DNA of 64,000 nt from a virus: IMG/VR virus record IMGVR_UViG_3300022539_000562; one strand, written 5' to 3'. This document shows positions 2,097-57,511 of the stretch, in pieces. The position numbers and the translations under genes are program-made. The notes below the pieces were generated by a model. The model made no database searches. It was not told the origin of the DNA and saw nothing but the letters and a program-made list of their open reading frames with translations. Position 1 is the stretch's first letter, and every line of letters begins with the position of its first letter.

Positions 2097-2364
2097 TTTT
2101 CACCTTCTTACATAACCAATGATTTCTCATCTTGGCTGTGCTTCCCAAAAAATTTTCACAACTTTTACAACATTTAATCCAAACTTTTTTATCCTTTTTT
2201 TTAGAGTAAGGACAATCTACATACATCTTTTTTTCACTTCCAAGTCTGTATAATCCCAAAGCATAATATTGCACTCCTTTTTCATCAAGTTCTTTATAGA
2301 GTGCATAATCCCTATGTTCTGGAGCAACATTTTGTAATTGTTCTCTTGTTCTGTGTTTAACCAT
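2080..2364 (-). CDS. Hypothetical Cys-containing protein
   Basis: 94-aa ORF with an AAGGTG SD, directly downstream of the tRNA array. Confidence 0.6.
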   Translation of the reverse strand: MVKHRTREQLQNVAPEHRDYALYKELDEKGVQYYALGLYRLGSEKKMYVDCPYSKKKDKKVWIKCCKSCENFLGSTAKMRNHWLCKKVKNENKS

Positions 2365-2388
2365 TTATTTCACCTTTATATATTAATT

Positions 2389-2464
2389 TGGAGCCAGCAG
2401 TCGGGTTCGAACCGACGACCTGTTCATTACAAGTGAACTGCTCTGCCAACTGAGCTACACTGGC
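2389..2464 (-). tRNA. trnT: tRNA-Thr(UGU)
   Basis: Cloverleaf; GTTCA-CT TGT AA-TGAAC; encoded CCA. Confidence 0.95.
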
Positions 2465-2539
2465 TGGAACTGGTGATGGGACTTGAACCCACAAAACTGA
2501 CTTGGAAGGACAGCATTTTGCCAATTAAATTACACCAGC
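2465..2539 (-). tRNA. trnG: tRNA-Gly(UCC)
   Basis: Loop CT TCC AA; U73; CCA. Confidence 0.9.
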
Positions 2540-2614
2540 TGGGGTAAGTGGCGAGACTTGAACTCGTATCTCATTGGTTCACAGCCAACACGCATTAACT
2601 TATGCTACACTTAC
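2540..2614 (-). tRNA. trnH: tRNA-His(GUG); base at -1 is C, not G
   Basis: Loop CT GTG AA; acceptor GTAAGTG/CACTTAC; C73; CCA. Confidence 0.9.
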
Positions 2615-2615
2615 G

Positions 2616-2689
2616 TGGCAAATCCACAAGGACTCGAACCTTGAACTTCTGTTTTGGAGACAGATATTTTTCCATTAAACTATGGATTT
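2616..2689 (-). tRNA. trnW: tRNA-Trp(CCA)
   Basis: TCTGT-CT CCA AA-ACAGA; G73; CCA. Confidence 0.93.
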
Positions 2690-2765
2690 TGGTAACAGAG
2701 GAGGGACTTGAACCCCCAACCTTCTGGATGTAAGCCAGACAATCTACCATTGATAATACTCTGTT
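2690..2765 (-). tRNA. trnV: tRNA-Val(UAC)
   Basis: TCTGG-CT TAC AT-CCAGA; CCA. Confidence 0.93.
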
Positions 2766-2839
2766 TGGCTGAGAAGAAAGGATTCGAACCTCTATCAATG
2801 GATTCAAAGTCCACTATCCTACCATTAGACGACTTCTCA
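2766..2839 (-). tRNA. trnQ: tRNA-Gln(UUG)
   Basis: GTGGA-CT TTG AA-TCCAT; U1:A72; G73. Confidence 0.93.
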
Positions 2840-2899
2840 TGGATTTAGTTATTATTTAAACTAAATTTTTTATTAAACCATAAAATATAATTATCAAAT

Positions 2900-2976
2900 T
2901 GGTATTCAGGGTAGGACTCGAACCTACATTAAACAGATTCTAAGTCTGCTGTGTTTGCCAATTACACCACCTGAAC
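2900..2976 (-). tRNA. trnL: tRNA-Leu(UAG), short variable loop
   Basis: GCAGA-CT TAG AA-TCTGT; variable region TTAAT (5 nt); A73. Confidence 0.9.
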
Positions 2977-3054
2977 TGGTGCTTGAAACAGGATTCGAAC
3001 CTGTATAAAATGGATTTTGAATCCACTATGTTTGCCTAATTACATCATTCAAGC
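2977..3054 (-). tRNA. trnL: tRNA-Leu(CAA), short variable loop
   Basis: GTGGA-TT CAA AA-TCCAT; variable region TTTAT. Confidence 0.9.
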
Positions 3055-3131
3055 TGGTGTACAAGGTCAGATTCGAACTGACAAAAGATGGATTTTAAGT
3101 CCATTATGTTTACCAATTACATCACTTGTAC
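3055..3131 (-). tRNA. trnL: tRNA-Leu(UAA), short variable loop
   Basis: ATGGA-CT TAA AA-TCCAT; variable region CTTTT. Confidence 0.9.
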
Positions 3132-3208
3132 TGGTAGCGGGAGTGGGATTCGAACCCACGACCTTCTGGTTATGAGCCAGTTTATCTACCTGACTGATAT
3201 ATCCCGCT
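3132..3208 (-). tRNA. trnM: tRNA-Met(CAU), initiator-like; A1 shared with the CCA of the upstream tRNA-Pro
   Basis: CTGG-CT CAT AA-CCAG; GCGGG/CCCGC acceptor; GAAGGTCGT variable/T region as in fMet; A11:U24. Confidence 0.85.
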
Positions 3209-3284
3209 GGTCAGAGTGAAAAGATTTGAACTTTTGACCTCATGTTCCCAAAACACGCGTTCTACCAGACTGAACTACACTCTG
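3208..3284 (-). tRNA. trnP: tRNA-Pro(UGG)
   Basis: CGTGT-TT TGG GA-ACATG; C1:G72; A73. Confidence 0.93.
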
Positions 3285-3361
3285 TGGTGGAACGAACAGG
3301 ACTCGAACCTACATCTTCCTGATTAAAAGTCAGACGCTTTACCATATTAAGCTATCGTTCC
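3285..3361 (-). tRNA. trnK: tRNA-Lys(UUU)
   Basis: TCTGA-CT TTT AA-TCAGG; CCA. Confidence 0.95.
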
Positions 3362-3436
3362 TAGTTGTATTGATGAGATTTGAACTCATATCTTGATGAT
3401 TAAGAGTCATCTGTTTTACCAATTAAACTACAATAC
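3362..3436 (-). tRNA. trnK: tRNA-Lys(CUU), possibly degenerate (3' CTA instead of CCA; 6-bp acceptor)
   Basis: GATGA-CT CTT AA-TCATC; ends ...CAATACAACTA. Confidence 0.75.
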
Positions 3437-3513
3437 TGGCTGTGCAGGTAGGATTCGAACCTACATCTTTGGGATTAACAGTCCCACATTTTACCAATTA
3501 ATACTACTACACA
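3437..3513 (-). tRNA. trnN: tRNA-Asn(GUU)
   Basis: TGGGA-CT GTT AA-TCCCA; G73. Confidence 0.95.
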
Positions 3514-3631
3514 TGGATTATAAGTCCTCACGCTTATAATACTACAATATAAGTCCCTGTGCTTATCAAAGGCAACCTATATAATTTTATCTCTTATCAA
3601 AATTTATGATAATTTTTTATATTAGATATTT

Positions 3632-3720
3632 TGGCGGAAGAGACAGGATTCGAACCTGTGTGGGTTTTACCCCAATGGATTAGCAGTCCATCTCGATAAA
3701 CCTGACTCTGACACTCTTCC
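3632..3720 (-). tRNA. trnS: tRNA-Ser(GCU)
   Basis: ATGGA-CT GCT AA-TCCAT; long variable arm; G73. Confidence 0.95.
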
Positions 3721-3728
3721 TGGATTAA

Positions 3729-4151
3729 TTATTTCTCCTTCAATCCATATTTTCCATCAAACCATTTCAAATAATCATCAATTCCTTGTTTTCCATATTT
3801 ATAATAAATATAATCATATGCTCTTTGATGTAATAATCCATGTTTTGAATTTGATAATAATATAATTTCATCATTATTTTCTTTTAAATAAATATGATGC
3901 TTACATAATATATTTCTTGCTTTTTCTCTAAATTCAGAATTTTGCCATTGTTTCTTTGTTGCTATCCTTAAATTTTTTTTATGTTCATCAGTTAATTTTC
4001 TACCTGTAAGTGCTTTGCTTATTTTTTTTCTAGTTTTTTCAGAATATTTTTTAGTTTTTAAATTATGTCCATTAATATACTTATTTCCTAATTTTACAAT
4101 TTGTCCACATCCACACTTACAATATTTTATTTTAATTTCACATAATTTCAT
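3729..4151 (-). CDS. Free-standing NUMOD3/HNH-like homing endonuclease inside the tRNA array
   Basis: CKCGCG, NUMOD3 repeats (SEKTRKKISKAL, TDEHKKNL), CKHH..SNSKHGLLH. Confidence 0.75.
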   Translation of the reverse strand: MKLCEIKIKYCKCGCGQIVKLGNKYINGHNLKTKKYSEKTRKKISKALTGRKLTDEHKKNLRIATKKQWQNSEFREKARNILCKHHIYLKENNDEIILLSNSKHGLLHQRAYDYIYYKYGKQGIDDYLKWFDGKYGLKEK

Positions 4152-4184
4152 TTTATTCTCCTAATTGATATAAATATTAAATTC

Positions 4185-4270
4185 TGGTAGACGAGGTAGG
4201 ATTCGAACCTACGAAGCTCTCAGCAATGGTATATAAGACCATCTCCTTTAACCTGCTTGGATACTCGTCC
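4185..4270 (-). tRNA. trnI: tRNA-Ile(UAU) with long, Tyr-type variable arm
   Basis: ATGGT-CT TAT AT-ACCAT; 13-nt variable arm TGCTGAGAGCTTC; 86 nt; CCA. Confidence 0.85.
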
Positions 4271-4359
4271 TGGTAGACAGGATAGGATTTGAACCTATGA
4301 AACTTTAATAGTAATGGCATATCAGACCATTCTCTTTGACCAAACTTGAATACCTGTCC
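4271..4359 (-). tRNA. trnI: tRNA-Ile(GAU) with long, Tyr-type variable arm
   Basis: ATGGT-CT GAT AT-GCCAT; 15-nt variable arm TACTATTAAAGTTTC; 89 nt; CCA. Confidence 0.85.
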
Positions 4360-4431
4360 TGGAGACAGAGAGGGGAGTCGAACCCCTGTGGATAGTTTTG
4401 CAGACTACCTCGATTCCAAATCTACTCTGTC
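4360..4431 (-). tRNA. trnC: tRNA-Cys(GCA)
   Basis: GTAGT-CT GCA AA-ACTAT; U73. Confidence 0.93.
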
Positions 4432-4507
4432 TGGTGGAGAAATTTGGAATTGAACCAAAACCTACAGGTCTTCAACCTATCGTGCAGACCTCTTACACCA
4501 TTTCTCC
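4432..4507 (-). tRNA. trnF: tRNA-Phe(GAA)
   Basis: ATAGG-TT GAA GA-CCTGT; G1 is the last base of the HNH stop codon TAG. Confidence 0.92.
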
Positions 4508-4962
4508 TATCTTATTTGATTATGACATCTAATACATAAAGTTAATAAATTATCTAATTTATTATTTTTCTTATTATCATTAATATGATGAACATGCAAT
4601 TTTTGATTATATTTTTTAATATATTCCTCCTGAGTTATTCCACATTTTTGACAAATATGATTATCTCGTTCCCTAATAAATTCTTTTAACTTATTATTAA
4701 ATTCTGGAGAATAAGGTTCAAATGATTTGCCACCTTGCCAATTAGGATTATTTTTACCTCTCATAATTTTTTTAATTGTTTTTCTATATTTAGGATTTTT
4801 CCAAACTTGTTCCATACTTTTACTAACACTTATGCTTATATTTTTCCTATGTTCTTCAGTAAGTTTTTTACCTTTATGTGCTTTACTTATTTTCTTTTTA
4901 ACTTTTTTAGAAACTATATGTCCTTTAACAAATCTTCCTTTATTATTTCTATCTTTGTTCAT
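4507..4962 (-). CDS. Free-standing NUMOD3/HNH homing endonuclease inside the tRNA array
   Basis: NUMOD3 repeats; NNPNWQGG; RDNHICQKC...LHVHHI...NLLTLCIRCH. Confidence 0.85.
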   Translation of the reverse strand: MNKDRNNKGRFVKGHIVSKKVKKKISKAHKGKKLTEEHRKNISISVSKSMEQVWKNPKYRKTIKKIMRGKNNPNWQGGKSFEPYSPEFNNKLKEFIRERDNHICQKCGITQEEYIKKYNQKLHVHHINDNKKNNKLDNLLTLCIRCHNQIR

Positions 4963-4981
4963 TTTTATCCCCCATATTTTT

Positions 4982-5058
4982 TGGCGACACTAACGGGATT
5001 TGAACCCGTATCTCTTGCGTGACAGGCAAGTGTCATAACCTGATTAGACCATAATGTC
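4982..5058 (-). tRNA. trnD: tRNA-Asp(GUC)
   Basis: CTTGC-CT GTC AC-GCAAG; G73. Confidence 0.95.
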
Positions 5059-5133
5059 TGGTAGAACTAGTGAGAATCGAACTCACATCATATGCTTGAA
5101 AGGCATATATCCTAACCATTAGACCATAGTTCC
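5059..5133 (-). tRNA. trnE: tRNA-Glu(UUC)
   Basis: TATGC-CT TTC AA-GCATA. Confidence 0.93.
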
Positions 5134-5223
5134 TGGCGGAAAGAGTAGGATTCGAACCTACGGAAGTTTTACCTTCAATAGTTTTCAAGACTATCACAAT
5201 AAACCTGACTCTGACATCTTTCC
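5134..5223 (-). tRNA. trnS: tRNA-Ser(UGA)
   Basis: ATAGT-CT TGA AA-ACTAT; long arm; G73. Confidence 0.95.
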
Positions 5224-5309
5224 TGGTGGAGAGAATAGGATTTGAACCTACGAACCCATACGAGAGCAGTTTTACAGACTGCCTGCTTTAACCACTTGCA
5301 TATCTCTCC
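5224..5309 (-). tRNA. trnY: tRNA-Tyr(GUA)
   Basis: GCAGT-CT GTA AA-ACTGC; 14-nt arm TCTCGTATGGGTTC. Confidence 0.95.
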
Positions 5310-5386
5310 TGGTACGCCTGGTAGGACTTGAACCTACATCTTGCGGATTAGAAGTCCACTGTTCTATTCCATTAAACTACAGACGT
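5310..5386 (-). tRNA. trnR: tRNA-Arg(UCU)
   Basis: GTGGA-CT TCT AA-TCCGC. Confidence 0.95.
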
Positions 5387-5462
5387 TGGTGGAGATAGAG
5401 GGACTTGAACCCACAACTTCAGGGTGCAAACCTAATGTTTTTCCAATTAAAACTATATCCCC
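5387..5462 (-). tRNA. trnA: tRNA-Ala(UGC)
   Basis: TTAGG-TT TGC AC-CCTGA; G3:U70. Confidence 0.95.
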
Positions 5463-5541
5463 TGGAGTGCCTGATGAGATTCGAACTCACAATCTATGGG
5501 TTCGTAGCCCATTGTTTTATATCCAATTAAACTACAGACAC
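5463..5541 (-). tRNA. trnR: tRNA-Arg(ACG)
   Basis: ATGGG-CT ACG AA-CCCAT; CCA. Confidence 0.93.
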
Positions 5542-5553
5542 TTAAATAAAAAA

Positions 5554-5594
5554 TACTTATTTTTTTAAAAGAAATAAGTAGAAAACTTTGTGGA
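5554..5594 (-). repeat. Hairpin + AAAACT element (family B) at the head of the tRNA operon
   Basis: TACTTAT..ATAAGTA GAAAACT TTGTGGA; near match to 9066-9108. Confidence 0.6.
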
Positions 5595-6087
5595 TTTAAT
5601 TAATATGTTTAAATTATAAATGAATTTATTTAAAACATCTAATTCATACCTCCACTAAACCATTCTAAATGTTCTTCTATTTGCTTACAATTTTCTTTCG
5701 GCATCTTACCTTCTTATATTTATTTCTAATTATTTATTAATGGATATTTTTTAAATCGGTTGTGTTTATTCTGTAAGATAGAGCAAACACACTTGGATAA
5801 ATCTCTAACTTACATTTGCCTATTTAAGAAATATAGAAATATCCAAAAACTATATTTCGCAAAATTTTTATAAATACTGTTTAGTAATTTAAAACCCAAA
5901 CAAGTATAAGAACTCCTTCTACACTTGGTAGATGAGATTATACCTGCCTTTGCCATCAACTTTGCTAACGCAGTTGCAGGTATATTTTAATGAAGTTTTT
6001 TTATAACTATTCATCCCTAACAACAACTAGAAAACTTCAAAACTAATTGGTTCTTTTGGGACGCCCATCAGCTTGACACATTTTTAA

Positions 6088-6140
6088 TGGCGAAAAGTAT
6101 AATTTATCTACTAAATACATAATAGGAACTTTCTATGCCA
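6088..6140 (-). ncRNA. Structured RNA motif family A, copy 1
   Basis: TGGC-ATA-GAAAGT-TCCTATT-hairpin-ACTTTT-C-GCCA. Confidence 0.7.
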
Positions 6141-6152
6141 TATTCTTTATAA

Positions 6153-6217
6153 ATAGCGAGAAGTAAATCTTTAGACAGGGTCTCCCCTGTATATAAAATA
6201 GGAACTTCTTATGCTAT
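6153..6217 (-). ncRNA. Structured RNA motif family A, copy 2
   Basis: ATAGC-ATA-AGAAGT-TCCTATT..ACAGGG(GAGA)CCCTGT..ACTTCT-C-GCTAT. Confidence 0.78.
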
Positions 6218-6222
6218 TATTT

Positions 6223-6702
6223 TTATTTAATTAAATTCAATATAGTATCTCTAAACCATATAAGATAATCATCAATCTTACCAATTTCTACTAAATAATT
6301 ATATGCTTTTACATGTAGTTTTCTATGTTCAGAATTTGTTAAAAATAAAACTCTCTTATCATCACCATCTAAATCAATATGATGCTTGTGTAATATATCT
6401 TTATGTTTTTTTCTAAATTTAGAATTTTGCCATACTTTTTTCATAGTTTTACTTTTTTTCTTCTTAACTTCAAATCTATTTCCTACTTCTCTACTTGCAC
6501 AACTTCTACATCTTTTAGCACCATAAACAATTTCCTTTCTACAATCTATACAATAATATTTTTTTAAAGTTCTACCATCAATATAACTTGGATGTTTTAT
6601 ACCATCTTTAAATTCAGTTTCAAATGAATAATGTTTATTCTTGTGAGCAATTCTTAATTTTTCTTTATGTTCTTCTGTTTGTTTATATCCTTTTTTAGGC
6701 AT
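6223..6702 (-). CDS. NUMOD/Zn-finger/HNH-like homing endonuclease
   Basis: KKGYKQTEEH; DGRTLKKYYCIDC; HKHHIDLD..TNSEHRKLH. Confidence 0.7.
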   Translation of the reverse strand: MPKKGYKQTEEHKEKLRIAHKNKHYSFETEFKDGIKHPSYIDGRTLKKYYCIDCRKEIVYGAKRCRSCASREVGNRFEVKKKKSKTMKKVWQNSKFRKKHKDILHKHHIDLDGDDKRVLFLTNSEHRKLHVKAYNYLVEIGKIDDYLIWFRDTILNLIK

Positions 6703-20672: not shown

Positions 20673-21462
20673 TTATATATGCACAATATTCTTTTTTACA
20701 TTGTTTTTTATCAAAATAATGTCTATTTGGTATTTTTCTTTTTTTAATTTTTCCCATAATATTTTTGCATCTATCAATTAAATTTTTAATATATGCTTCA
20801 TTTTTATAAATTGTTACTTCAAATTGTCTAGAATTATTACGATTGTGTGCAAGAATAGTTGCTTTATCTAATTCTGTAACATACATATAAAACTGTGCTT
20901 GCATATACATTCCTATACCTGAAATATTAGTCTTAAGAAATTTTTCAGGATTTGTTTTAAACTGATTAAAATATCGTTCCAGAAGAGTTTTGACATCTAT
21001 TACTCTCTTGTCACCCTTGTATTCAATAATAAAATCTGGTTTTATAAGAAGAATTATTTCATTGCCATCATCATCTTTTATGCTTTTTCTTATAAATTTC
21101 TCTTTATAATTTTCTGATACTAAACCTGCCATTGGAAATAAATATTCTTCATACATTTTGTGTAACCAAGTACCACTATCCATATTAATTTGTTGGTCAG
21201 GTTTTATTAATTTAATATCTGGTGGAATAATAAAAGAATAATAAATACTTCTATCACATTGTTTTCTTAAAAGACTATACGAAAAATATTTTTTTAATTT
21301 TTTCCTTTTTTTACTTTCTTGCATTTGCTTATCCATATATTTTTTCTTAATATAAGGCATTACAAAAGGTTCTATTTTAACTTTTATATCATTTAGTTGT
21401 CTGGTTTTTTTTAAAGCACTAATTAATTGTTCTATACCATTCATTCCGATTTCTTCTGTCAT
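20641..21462 (-). CDS. Cas4-like PD-(D/E)XK exonuclease
   Basis: CDR..YY; GTWLH; PDF..IDVKT; Q..FYM; C-terminal C..C...C. Confidence 0.75.
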   Translation of the reverse strand: MTEEIGMNGIEQLISALKKTRQLNDIKVKIEPFVMPYIKKKYMDKQMQESKKRKKLKKYFSYSLLRKQCDRSIYYSFIIPPDIKLIKPDQQINMDSGTWLHKMYEEYLFPMAGLVSENYKEKFIRKSIKDDDGNEIILLIKPDFIIEYKGDKRVIDVKTLLERYFNQFKTNPEKFLKTNISGIGMYMQAQFYMYVTELDKATILAHNRNNSRQFEVTIYKNEAYIKNLIDRCKNIMGKIKKRKIPNRHYFDKKQCKKEYCAYINECWRNNEKD

Positions 21463-22099
21463 ACTTCCTCTCCTTCATCTTTTAATTTCCATTCTCCATA
21501 ATCTTTACAGAATAATAAAAATGCCCAATTTGCCATTTTAACCAAAGCCAACATTAATTTAGTATTTAAATACTCAAATAAATGTTTCATAACCTGAATC
21601 AAACAAAAAGTATCAGCACCAAAAACATCGCAAATAAAATCAGTTGCTTCTCTTTTTTCATTAAATGCATATCTTTTTGTTCCTTTTTGCAAACTTTTCC
21701 ACATTAAAGCAGTAAATTCTTTAAATAATTTTTTCTTAATTGCAACATTAGTATCCATTATACTCCTTTCTTATATATTATACCACTTCGTTGCCATTTT
21801 GTTGCTGTTCCAGCACATGGCTTAGGTATTTCAATACTAAACTCTAAATTAGGAAATATTTTTCGTGTTTCCTTATTCAATTCTACTTCATCAAACATCA
21901 TTTCTACTTCTCTAGCGGTTGAAAAAGGAATTACAATATTTTTACAAAAAATAATTTTTATATTTCCATTTTCTGTTTTTACAATATATTCTTCATTTGT
22001 TATCCAGCATTTATTTTCTAATTGTTGTTTAATAAAATCTATATACCTAACATATTCTATAAATTTATACTTTTTTTTATCCATCTCTAATAAATCCAA
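21459..22099 (-). other. Two hypothetical CDSs (21459-21758, 21758-22099)
   Basis: Coupled ORFs. Confidence 0.55.
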
Positions 22100-44207: not shown

Positions 44208-44219
44208 TTTTAATTTTGA

Positions 44220-44314
44220 TGGAGCAGGAGGGATTTGAACCTTCGTCCAAAATAAACAAATAAACAAATATTATGTCAGTTTATTCATTTATCCTGTCGA
44301 AACCCATCTGCCCC
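44220..44314 (-). ncRNA. Minimal tmRNA-like RNA (tRNA-like domain only)
   Basis: GGGGCAG-AT-GGGTTTCGA-[18-bp helix, 13-nt loop]-GAC-GAAGG-TTCAAAT-CCCTC-CTGCTCC-A; G3:U70. Confidence 0.8.
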
Positions 44315-54675: not shown

Positions 54676-55230
54676 TCATTTTACTAATCCTTTTTTAATT
54701 TGCTGATAGAGTTTCATTATTTCCTGTAATGTAACAGGTCTGTAATTATGCACATCTACGCCTACATTAATTAGTATTCTCAATTTATTTCTATCAATCA
54801 TTTTTCTTTGAAATTTCCAATTTTGATGTATATGTCCTACTAAATTTAATTGATAATTATAATTTGCTTCTGCTGGATTATGAACTAAATTTATTAACAT
54901 TTTACTATAATATATTTGCAATGATTTTATTCTACTTTTTACAGAATTATTTCTATCATGATTTCCTATAATATGAGTAATCTTACCATTTAACATATCT
55001 TCCCAATATTTTGCAGGTTCTATTCCACCTTCTCCTCTATATATCATAGCAGGAGTATTTTTAAAACAAAAATCTCCTATTACATAAACTACATCTTCAT
55101 TCTTAACTCTTTCATTCCATCTACGAATTAATTCTTCATTCATATGTGTTAAACTCTTAAATGGTCTTCCACAGTATCTGATAATATTGTAATGATTAAG
55201 ATGTAAATCACTTGTCACAAAATATTTCAA
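54676..55230 (-). CDS. Calcineurin-like metallophosphoesterase
   Basis: SDLHLNH; IGDF; GNHD; GHIH; NVGVD. Confidence 0.92.
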   Translation of the reverse strand: MKYFVTSDLHLNHYNIIRYCGRPFKSLTHMNEELIRRWNERVKNEDVVYVIGDFCFKNTPAMIYRGEGGIEPAKYWEDMLNGKITHIIGNHDRNNSVKSRIKSLQIYYSKMLINLVHNPAEANYNYQLNLVGHIHQNWKFQRKMIDRNKLRILINVGVDVHNYRPVTLQEIMKLYQQIKKGLVK

Positions 55231-56785: not shown

Positions 56786-57511
56786 CTAAAATCCTTTTTG
56801 TATTTTTAATCTCTTCATTTGACTTTTAGATAATTCAATTAATTCTGCAATACCATAATCCTTATGTTTTATTTTAGTAATTACTCTATTGCCATTTCTT
56901 GCCTTCAGTTCTACCATAGGTTTTAATACCATTCCTTCTGCTAAAAAATCTCCCCATTGAGATTTAAGAGTACCTGATTTAATCAATTTGATAGCATCAT
57001 CAAGAGTACCTTTTCCTATAATTGGAACTACCTTTAAATCAAGTTTACTTGCTATTTCTTCTACATCATTTCTCTTTAACCACCAATCTCCTATTTTAAT
57101 ATCAAAAAGTATAAAATCTACTCCTTTTGGAATATATTTACCACCACTTTTTTGAATTTTAGCACCATAACCTTCTCCATACATACAAACATCTGGAATG
57201 TCATCACTCTCTCCAATTTTAAATACTTTCAACATTTTATCTTCTATAAATATTTTATTTAATTTTGCTAATAAAAAAATCGGTATTTGTGCCTTATCAG
57301 TTCTACCTTTAAAAACTATATGTGAAACCATTAATGGATGACTATGCCATAATATTCTAATATTTGTTCCATTTATTTTTTCAGTCCAATACCATATATT
57401 ATTTGCTAAATACTCTAGCCATTCTGTACTATACTGTCCTTCCAAAAAAGTCTTATAATTATCATCAGGATTTCTTTTAAATATACTTTGTATTTTAGGA
57501 TATTTAGTCAT
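56786..57511 (-). CDS. RNA ligase (ATP-dependent, Rnl2/RNA_ligase-like)
   Basis: YPKI; TEKINGTN (motif I); YGE; FDI; EGMV.KP; KIK. Confidence 0.85.
   Translation of the reverse strand: MTKYPKIQSIFKRNPDDNYKTFLEGQYSTEWLEYLANNIWYWTEKINGTNIRILWHSHPLMVSHIVFKGRTDKAQIPIFLLAKLNKIFIEDKMLKVFKIGESDDIPDVCMYGEGYGAKIQKSGGKYIPKGVDFILFDIKIGDWWLKRNDVEEIASKLDLKVVPIIGKGTLDDAIKLIKSGTLKSQWGDFLAEGMVLKPMVELKARNGNRVITKIKHKDYGIAELIELSKSQMKRLKIQKGF

Follow-up and report, generated by a model that had tools for sequence, protein, structure and literature searches.

Several described systems resemble the element reported here, an array of 26 transfer RNA (tRNA) genes at positions 2389-5541 of a 64,000-nucleotide (nt) window from the IMG/VR virus record IMGVR_UViG_3300022539_000562. 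The window is the whole stretch of DNA that was analysed; it corresponds to bases 26459-90458 of the 115,399-bp record, which comes from an uncultured phage and is estimated to be 99% complete, and its G+C content is 23-30%. The tRNA genes in phage T4 also lie on the same strand, are split by a homing-endonuclease gene, stand only a few bases apart, and are separated by RNase P (SegB paper, PMC2330249). The dimeric precursors of the T4 cluster are Gln-Leu, Pro-Ser, and Thr-Ile, and segB occupies the position in that cluster that an HNH open reading frame (ORF; 4507-4962) occupies in the window array. The T4 cluster has eight tRNAs, four of which encode CCA, whereas 25 of the 26 tRNAs in the window phage do so. 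At the T4 Gln>Leu and Pro>Ser junctions there is 1 nt past the discriminator, so that CCA must be added after the cut, and the other T4 junctions have 1-10-nt spacers. In contrast, 17 junctions in the window array are exact, with CCA directly followed by +1 of the next tRNA, and the T4-type situation, several tRNAs without encoded CCA that need a CCA-adding enzyme, does not apply to it.

The Escherichia coli operons valV-valW, valU, lysT, and leuQPV are polycistronic and encode CCA, with spacers such as CC, CUC, CUUC, and UCCU. The tRNAs in these operons, 2-4 nt apart, are separated by RNase P only, and the spacer bases left on the upstream tRNA are removed by RNase PH or RNase T (PMC4176162, PMC2190699); the exact junctions of the window phage leave no such bases. 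An engineered design has the same junctions. In the synthetic tRNA array method (Miyachi et al., Nat Commun 2025, PMC12381190), a single transcript carries about 21 tRNAs linked CCA-to-+1, and E. coli RNase P (M1 + C5) alone resolves directly linked tRNAs, up to a 21-tRNA transcript, into functional tRNAs. The authors contrast their design with "extant living systems", in which 3' processing is multistep (PMC12381190). The synthetic array is T7-driven and uses a hepatitis delta virus (HDV) ribozyme for the last 3' end (PMC12381190), whereas the phage array is natural, contains no Rfam-detectable ribozyme, and has block ends that run into mRNAs. A fourth comparison is with organelles.

Animal mitochondrial tRNA genes do not encode CCA, and RNase Z and CCA addition are required. 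In the tRNA punctuation of these genomes, genes abut tRNAs with 0 to 1 nt between them, and tRNA excision sets the ends of the neighbouring RNAs (review, PMC4394434). The stop codon of the HNH ORF in the window, which overlaps tRNA-Phe by 1 nt, is reminiscent of this arrangement. However, the 5' sides of the window ORFs have 19-33-nt leaders with ribosome-binding sites, nearly all of the window tRNAs encode CCA, and the organelle context differs.

Organization of the tRNA array

ARAGORN and Infernal (RF00005) found the same 26 minus-strand tRNAs, with Infernal scores of 40.5-71.1 bits (gathering score 29). The two programs agree on all 52 tRNA ends: the 5' ends are the same for all 26, and the 3' ends given by Infernal, at the discriminator, are exactly 3 nt short of those given by ARAGORN. 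The whole 115,399-bp genome contains no other tRNAs. With 26 RF00005 matches, the array is made up of canonical tRNA genes, contiguous and on one strand, as in a bacterial-type polycistronic tRNA operon.

Junctions were measured with a script as D, the count of bases from the discriminator of the upstream tRNA to +1 of the next; D = 3 corresponds to a zero spacer. D is 3 at 18 of the 21 within-block junctions, 17 of them with CCA and one, after Lys-CUU, with CTA. Thus, A76 is directly followed by +1, as in a directly linked array, at 17 junctions, plus the CTA variant. At two junctions D is 2, with A76 doubling as A1 of the next tRNA (Asn>Lys-CUU at 3437 and Pro>Met at 3208), and at one, Trp>His, D is 4, with an additional C at 2615, which is position -1 of tRNA-His. 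Lys-CUU, the only tRNA that does not encode CCA, has the tail CTA at 3362-3364 and an A1/A72 mismatch.

The tRNAs are arranged in five blocks, given here in the order of transcription. The first (5541-4982) holds seven tRNAs, Arg-ACG (5463-5541), Ala-UGC (5387-5462), Arg-UCU (5310-5386), Tyr-GUA (5224-5309), Ser-UGA (5134-5223), Glu-UUC (5059-5133), and Asp-GUC (4982-5058), and all six of its junctions are CCA followed by +1. The same is true for the three junctions of the second block (4507-4185), which contains Phe-GAA (4432-4507), Cys-GCA (4360-4431), Ile-GAU (4271-4359), and Ile-UAU (4185-4270). A lone tRNA-Ser-GCU (3720-3632) forms the third. The fourth block (3513-2900) has eight members, Asn-GUU (3437-3513), Lys-CUU (3364-3437), Lys-UUU (3285-3361), Pro-UGG (3208-3284), Met-CAU (3132-3208), Leu-UAA (3055-3131), Leu-CAA (2977-3054), and Leu-UAG (2900-2976), joined by four CCA junctions, the one CTA junction, and the two that share a base. 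The last block (2839-2389) consists of Gln-UUG (2766-2839), Val-UAC (2690-2765), Trp-CCA (2616-2689), His-GUG (2540-2614), Gly-UCC (2465-2539), and Thr-UGU (2389-2464), with four CCA junctions and the extra C between Trp and His.

The anticodons cover all 20 amino acids, but identities read in this way are assumptions, because the variable arm is long in both Ile tRNAs (4185-4359; tRNA lengths 86 and 89 nt) and the three Leu tRNAs (2900-3131) are short (77-78 nt). Only one tRNA has the anticodon CAU, and its features are partly those of an initiator and partly those of an elongator; either the initiator or the elongator Met is therefore missing, and the set is not fully self-sufficient. An initial annotation, made from the letters of the window alone, had described 26 tRNAs in five blocks (6, 8, 1, 4, and 7 by coordinate), 25 encoded CCA ends, a complete 20-amino-acid set, one 1-nt spacer, and two base-sharing junctions, and both tRNA searches, the junction script, and the anticodons returned the same counts. 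It had also given 18 junctions at which CCA is directly followed by the next tRNA; the geometry holds for all 18, although one of the 18 reads CTA.

Spacer lengths in other tRNA arrays

For a background sample, 120 IMG/VR tRNA loci were picked by a pattern that allowed 0-12-nt spacers; these contain 1113 tRNAs, 83% of them with CCA. Zero-spacer CCA junctions made up 18 of the 561 close junctions (3%), and chance is thereby excluded as the source of the junctions in the window array. This survey, which the initial annotation had proposed as a check, thus places the zero spacer among the rare lengths. The background junction lengths have modes at 1 nt and at 4-7 nt, and no other spacer length is as frequent in ordinary arrays as 1 nt (70 of 469 CCA junctions). 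Among background arrays with at least eight close junctions, the highest share of zero spacers was 0.45.

Relatives of the window phage were identified through a neighbouring 661-amino-acid protein. Two of them, L005 and L006, encode CCA and have AU-rich spacers of 4-8 nt; L002 does not encode CCA and has about 5 nt between tRNAs; L501 and L517 also lack encoded CCA, with 1-4 nt between tRNAs, like T4. The concern that spacerless arrays might be the norm in related phages is thus not borne out. L501 (SDBT01000551.1), whose homologue of the 661-amino-acid protein is 55% identical, has 13 tRNAs at 20704-21820; the bases past the discriminator are TA, TT, CTT, CTAA, C, and CCAG, with CCA mostly not encoded. 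This array may represent the same packing in decayed form or in an alternative version.

The cultured phages T4, CcrColossus, Jace, and Moo19 have D values of 1-19, and LPJP1, Ankus, and RHph_I1_6 likewise have ordinary spacers. A single Gly-Val pair in Synechococcus phage S-RIM8 is spacerless, the sole such case among the cultured phages examined. The 120 pattern hits sampled from bacterial and archaeal genomes contained only eight true tRNA-to-tRNA zero junctions and no array. No spacerless array was found in the relatives, in the cultured phages examined, or in the cellular genomes sampled. A near-identity search of the array against cultured phages gave no match, and a distant search gave single or double tRNA matches only, with no cultured relative of this array or of array G001, described below. 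In the literature searched, the coverage of which is incomplete, no natural spacerless phage tRNA array was found described.

Spacerless arrays in other phages

A complete pattern scan of IMG/VR for two consecutive zero-gap junctions gave 46 stretches, and from the zero-gap junction scans of this database we obtained nine further arrays that are 61-100% spacerless. Four are G+C-rich: G001, with 41 tRNAs in 4 kb (G+C 60%; zero spacer at 27 of 31 junctions), G003 (59%; 11 of 12), L570 (58%; 16 of 23), and L564 (57%; 14 of 22). The others are L550 (41%; 11 of 18), L346 (35%; 4 of 4), L572 (32%; 4 of 5), L567 (31%; 5 of 6), and G002 (30%; 15 of 18). The 3-nt steps in G001, G002, and G003 were verified with Infernal coordinates. 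A strict bimodality of array types was considered and had to be softened, because the targeted scan also gave arrays that are 61-70% spacerless.

The phages of G001 and G003 are related, and those of G002, L567, and L572 are loosely related. The window phage and G002 have no ORF in common except for one weak match, and the window phage shares about six generic proteins with G001, at 24-34% identity. The window tRNAs are 62-67% identical to those of any other spacerless array, the same as to those of ordinary arrays. Shared ancestry or transfer of the arrays among these phages was rejected, since the tRNA identity is at background and the gene orders differ. The spacerless layout thus arose, or was kept, independently in at least three unrelated phage lineages. 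No CCA-adding enzyme was found in the other spacerless-array phages or in the relatives, and a search of the genome of the window phage was also negative; with none in any phage checked, no correlation with the layout can be drawn.

The G001 array (also L250; G001:C1 42749-46769) has all 41 Infernal tRNA hits within 4 kb. What ARAGORN leaves as gaps of 72-89 nt in this array are tRNA-like units with a T-arm and CCA that abut the next tRNA, and at one junction a 12-nt duplication of a tRNA 3' end is present. The unusual Ile and Leu tRNAs of the window recur across phage arrays: a long-arm tRNA-Ile(UAU) of 92 nt occurs in the unrelated G002 and in L005 and L006, and short Leu tRNAs (76-80 nt) occur in G002, L002, and G001 (Leu-UAA, 78 nt).

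Junctions and mature tRNA ends

Among bacterial tRNAs, tRNA-His is the only one whose mature form has an extra 5' residue (-1). The junction before tRNA-His is at least one base longer in all seven of the spacerless arrays that have a tight His junction, as compared to 19 of 149 junctions before other tRNAs (Fisher p = 1.7e-6 for the extra preceding base). The -1 base is G in four arrays, in three of which it pairs with C73. G003 and L550 have U, facing A73 and C73, respectively, and the window phage has C. In the latter the discriminator is C73, and the usual G-1:C73 pair is impossible.

Where the downstream tRNA begins with A1, 16 of 20 junctions keep the full CCA plus A, and only 3 of the 20 make use of the possible overlap between A76 and A1. 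The 3-nt spacing is also kept where CCA is mutated, to CTA in the window phage and to TTA in G002. The His rule, the avoidance of overlap, and the retained 3-nt spacing together indicate that complete mature ends abut, and that these are not merely eroded spacers. The register of the junctions lies on the mature tRNA ends.

Genes, spacers, and leader of the array

Two ORFs separate blocks of the array. The first (4507-4962, minus strand) encodes a 151-amino-acid HNH homing endonuclease (PF01844, 25.5 bits, cut-off 21.4) with a NUMOD3-like N-terminus; it starts 19 nt past the CCA of tRNA-Asp, and a ribosome-binding site, GGGGGA, lies ahead of its start. The G of its TAG stop codon (4507-4509) is G1 of tRNA-Phe, so that an RNase P cut would leave the HNH mRNA without a complete stop codon. 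This prospect is worth recording in a phage that also has a tag-less mini-transfer-messenger RNA (tmRNA): a match to RF00023 is located at 44217-44314 of the window (minus strand; 98 nt, 68.9 bits, E 1e-24), and since it covers the model ends only, it is a tRNA-like domain that lacks the tag reading frame. The second ORF (3729-4151, minus strand, 140 amino acids) starts 33 nt past tRNA-Ile-UAU, behind AGGAGA. It had no Pfam match and is a paralogue of the ORF at 6223-6702; a NUMOD-like motif and an HH..N..H motif, both read by eye, make it a probable homing endonuclease.

The ORF that follows the array (2080-2364) starts 24 nt downstream of it, behind AAGGTGA. Other nuclease genes flank the array: a TnsA-like endonuclease (PF08722) at 866-1300 and a second HNH gene (PF01844) at 1304-1750, both on the plus strand, and the HNH-like paralogue at 6223-6702 on the minus strand. 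The spacerless array L567 carries an HNH gene 46% identical to the ORF at 1304-1750.

Two further gaps between blocks are non-coding. The 118-nt spacer at 3514-3631 (minus strand) ends, in the transcript, with a hairpin (3517-3540) and then CCA (3514-3516), which abuts +1 of tRNA-Asn; the 60-nt spacer at 2840-2899 (minus strand) ends with an 8-bp hairpin (2843-2866) and then CCA (2840-2842), which abuts +1 of tRNA-Gln. In both, the last six bases are AATCCA (3514-3519 and 2840-2845). The same hexamer is present ahead of tRNA-Ser-GCU at 3721-3726, within TTAATCCA (3721-3728), which precedes this tRNA and itself lies directly past the stop codon of the ORF at 3729-4151. Thus, of the five tRNAs that open a block, three (Gln, Asn, and Ser-GCU) have AATCCA directly ahead of them. 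The hexamer occurs 65 times in the 128 kb of both strands, which puts the probability of three matches at five fixed sites by chance at about 1e-9.

The possibility that the 60-nt and 118-nt gaps are decayed tRNAs was rejected, as Infernal gave no tRNA-like match in them even at E<=10, and their hairpins were no more stable than those of shuffled sequences. AATCCA was also rejected as a -10 promoter box, because a hexamer ending at -4 would place the start of transcription inside the tRNA. With a hairpin and then CCA ahead of +1, RNase P would release small CCA-ended RNAs from these spacers. One reading is that cleavage favours CCA at positions -3 to -1; the other is that the small RNAs have a role in their own right.

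In the leader upstream of the first tRNA (5542-5700, minus strand), an AT-rich hairpin with a U-run lies at about 5554-5582, AATCCA occurs once more (5591-5596), and a single weak match of the sigma-70 type is located at 5690-5662. No minus-strand terminator-like site was found within the array, and the promoter and terminator matches were not above those in shuffled sequences. The genome yielded no RNase P RNA and, outside the window, no other Rfam structured RNA. The genome was also negative in a search for Thg1, a possible source of G-1, and no self-cleaving ribozyme was detected by Rfam in 2300-6250, either at the gathering threshold or at E<=10.

Discussion

Cleavage by RNase P gives a leader that ends in a 3'-OH and a tRNA that begins with a 5'-phosphate; where CCA forms the last three bases of the leader, the leader is itself a finished tRNA. 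The array would be transcribed as a phage tRNA operon, interrupted by homing-endonuclease genes as in T4, in which the DNA-encoded mature ends of neighbours abut (...N73-C-C-A followed by +1). Host RNase P would cleave 5' of each +1, and the same cut would free the upstream tRNA with a finished CCA-OH end. In this way 17 of the 26 tRNAs would need no cut by RNase E or Z, no exonuclease trimming, and no CCA addition. The remaining tRNAs (the five at block ends, Pro, Asn, Lys-CUU, and probably Trp) would still require host trimming or CCA repair. It is likely that 17 of the 26 tRNAs are finished at both ends by RNase P alone.

We infer that the array is co-transcribed, that RNase P is the nuclease, and that selection for processing economy, over drift, keeps the register. 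The most likely benefit would be an equimolar production of tRNAs that depends on a single host enzyme. The claim of the initial annotation that one RNase P cut gives both the 5' end and the upstream CCA end agrees with the structure at 17 of the 26 tRNAs, with the His rule, with the full CCA plus A kept at 16 of 20 junctions before A1, and with the biochemistry of directly linked tRNAs and of the closely spaced E. coli operons, but it does not extend to the other nine.

Several observations weigh against this use of RNase P. M1 RNA alone cut long linked arrays poorly, and the yield varied with gene order (PMC12381190), so that efficient processing in vivo cannot be taken for granted. In the window array, the leader positions past the discriminator are engaged in pairing within the acceptor stem of the upstream tRNA. 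Since the promoter and terminator scans were no better than shuffles, a single transcript is an assumption. A further nuclease is required for the five tRNAs at block ends, whose A/U-rich trailers continue into mRNAs or spacers; A76 would be lost from Pro and Asn and would have to be restored, and the tail of Lys-CUU must be repaired to CCA. Unless the additional C goes to tRNA-His, it stays on Trp, and as C-1 is unable to pair with C73, cleavage by RNase P may fall at +1 and yield Trp-CCAC. With nine of the 26 tRNAs in need of other enzymes, the phage is not independent of host 3' processing, and the suggestion that no 3' trimming or CCA addition is needed was too strong. Finally, L501, L517, and T4 are as tight without CCA, and tight packing can thus arise without the benefit of a single cut. 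On balance, processing by RNase P is a plausible reading of these junctions.

Among the alternatives, neutral deletion bias survives best, though we consider it unlikely. Spacers would be lost until the next deletion damages a gene; zero spacer would then be an absorbing boundary, RNase P would cut in its usual manner, and the finished 3' end would carry no advantage. This fits the compactness of phage genomes and the 1-nt overlap of the HNH stop codon with tRNA-Phe, and it is in keeping with the prevalence of 1-nt spacers in ordinary arrays, with the equal tightness of L501, L517, and T4 in the absence of CCA, and with the mixture of D = 3 and D = 4 in L570 and L564. However, the same operon retains two non-coding gaps (60 and 118 nt) and a leader about 130 nt long, the overlap of A76 with A1 is used in just three of the 20 possible cases, and the His junction retains its extra base in every array where it is tight. 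AATCCA ahead of three block-first tRNAs and independent recurrence at 61-100% in several lineages, when most arrays are at 0-15%, also weigh against it. Neutral compaction accounts for the tightness but not for the His rule, the avoidance of overlap, or the surviving 60-118-nt gaps.

A purpose in anti-defence, that is, the rapid rebuilding of the tRNA pool after an attack by a host anticodon nuclease or the loss of host tRNAs, is speculation, and we rate it somewhat lower still. Phage tRNAs are known to counter tRNA-targeting defences (PMC10264068, PMC11464382, PMC11555353), and the set in the window covers all 20 amino acids. No specific support was found for the fast replacement of the pool that the initial annotation had put forward, the one hint being an RNA ligase encoded elsewhere in the genome (PF09414, 59 bits, 56786-57511, minus strand). 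With a nearby calcineurin-like metallophosphoesterase (54676-55230, minus strand), this ligase could, judging by the domains, form a pair for the healing and sealing of RNA ends, but a search of the genome for RtcB was negative. No evidence connects the spacing itself with defence, large tRNA sets with ordinary spacers are common, and without an initiator/elongator Met pair the set is not self-sufficient.

It is improbable that a nuclease other than RNase P makes the single cut, whether an RNase Z with its cleavage site just past CCA or a phage enzyme that escaped recognition. RNase Z of the Thermotoga maritima type does cut directly after CCA; the product would be the same and indistinguishable from sequence, and the genome has many unannotated ORFs. 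However, no RNase Z-like or RNase P-like gene turned up, although no search was aimed at RNase Z, and since the 5' end of each tRNA depends on RNase P in any case, these junctions call for no second enzyme. In vitro, no nuclease besides RNase P was required (PMC12381190).

That the layout records how the arrays were built, through capture of mature tRNA copies (with CCA and His -1) or through cassette shuffling that breaks between CCA and +1, perhaps with the aid of homing endonucleases, is very improbable: the mature-end register including His -1, the HNH genes inside the arrays of the window phage and L567 (46% identical), and the 3-nt placeholders CTA and TTA that hold the spacing after mutation of CCA would fit, but no reverse transcriptase was noticed (no search was aimed at one), the His -1 base is not always G, and the tRNAs resemble their own phage in base composition and are only 62-67% identical between arrays, so that any capture would be old and the register maintained since.

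Spacerless CCA arrays could represent a separate maturation regime that evolved more than once, in which tRNAs are supplied through RNase P only, bypassing RNase E/Z, 3' exonucleases, and the CCA-adding enzyme. We regard this broader proposal as possible but doubtful. If true, such a regime would be useful when the bypassed activities are limiting, shut off, or turned against the phage, and AATCCA before block-first tRNAs would mean that CCA at -3 to -1 is part of the preferred substrate.

The array is a rare variant of the polycistronic tRNA operons resolved by RNase P, and it recurs in unrelated phages. Textbook 3' maturation of tRNAs is multistep. The authors of the 2025 synthetic array asked why nature forgoes a workable route through RNase P only (PMC12381190); the arrays described here suggest that nature does use this route, repeatedly, and to make complete decoding sets. 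For tRNA expression in cell-free systems and minimal cells, they provide gene orders and junction contexts shaped by natural evolution, and they form a clean system in which to study what the usual 3'-processing steps are for, such as quality control or regulation. The consistent extra base before tRNA-His provides a simple sequence signature of junctions that are tuned to mature tRNA ends.

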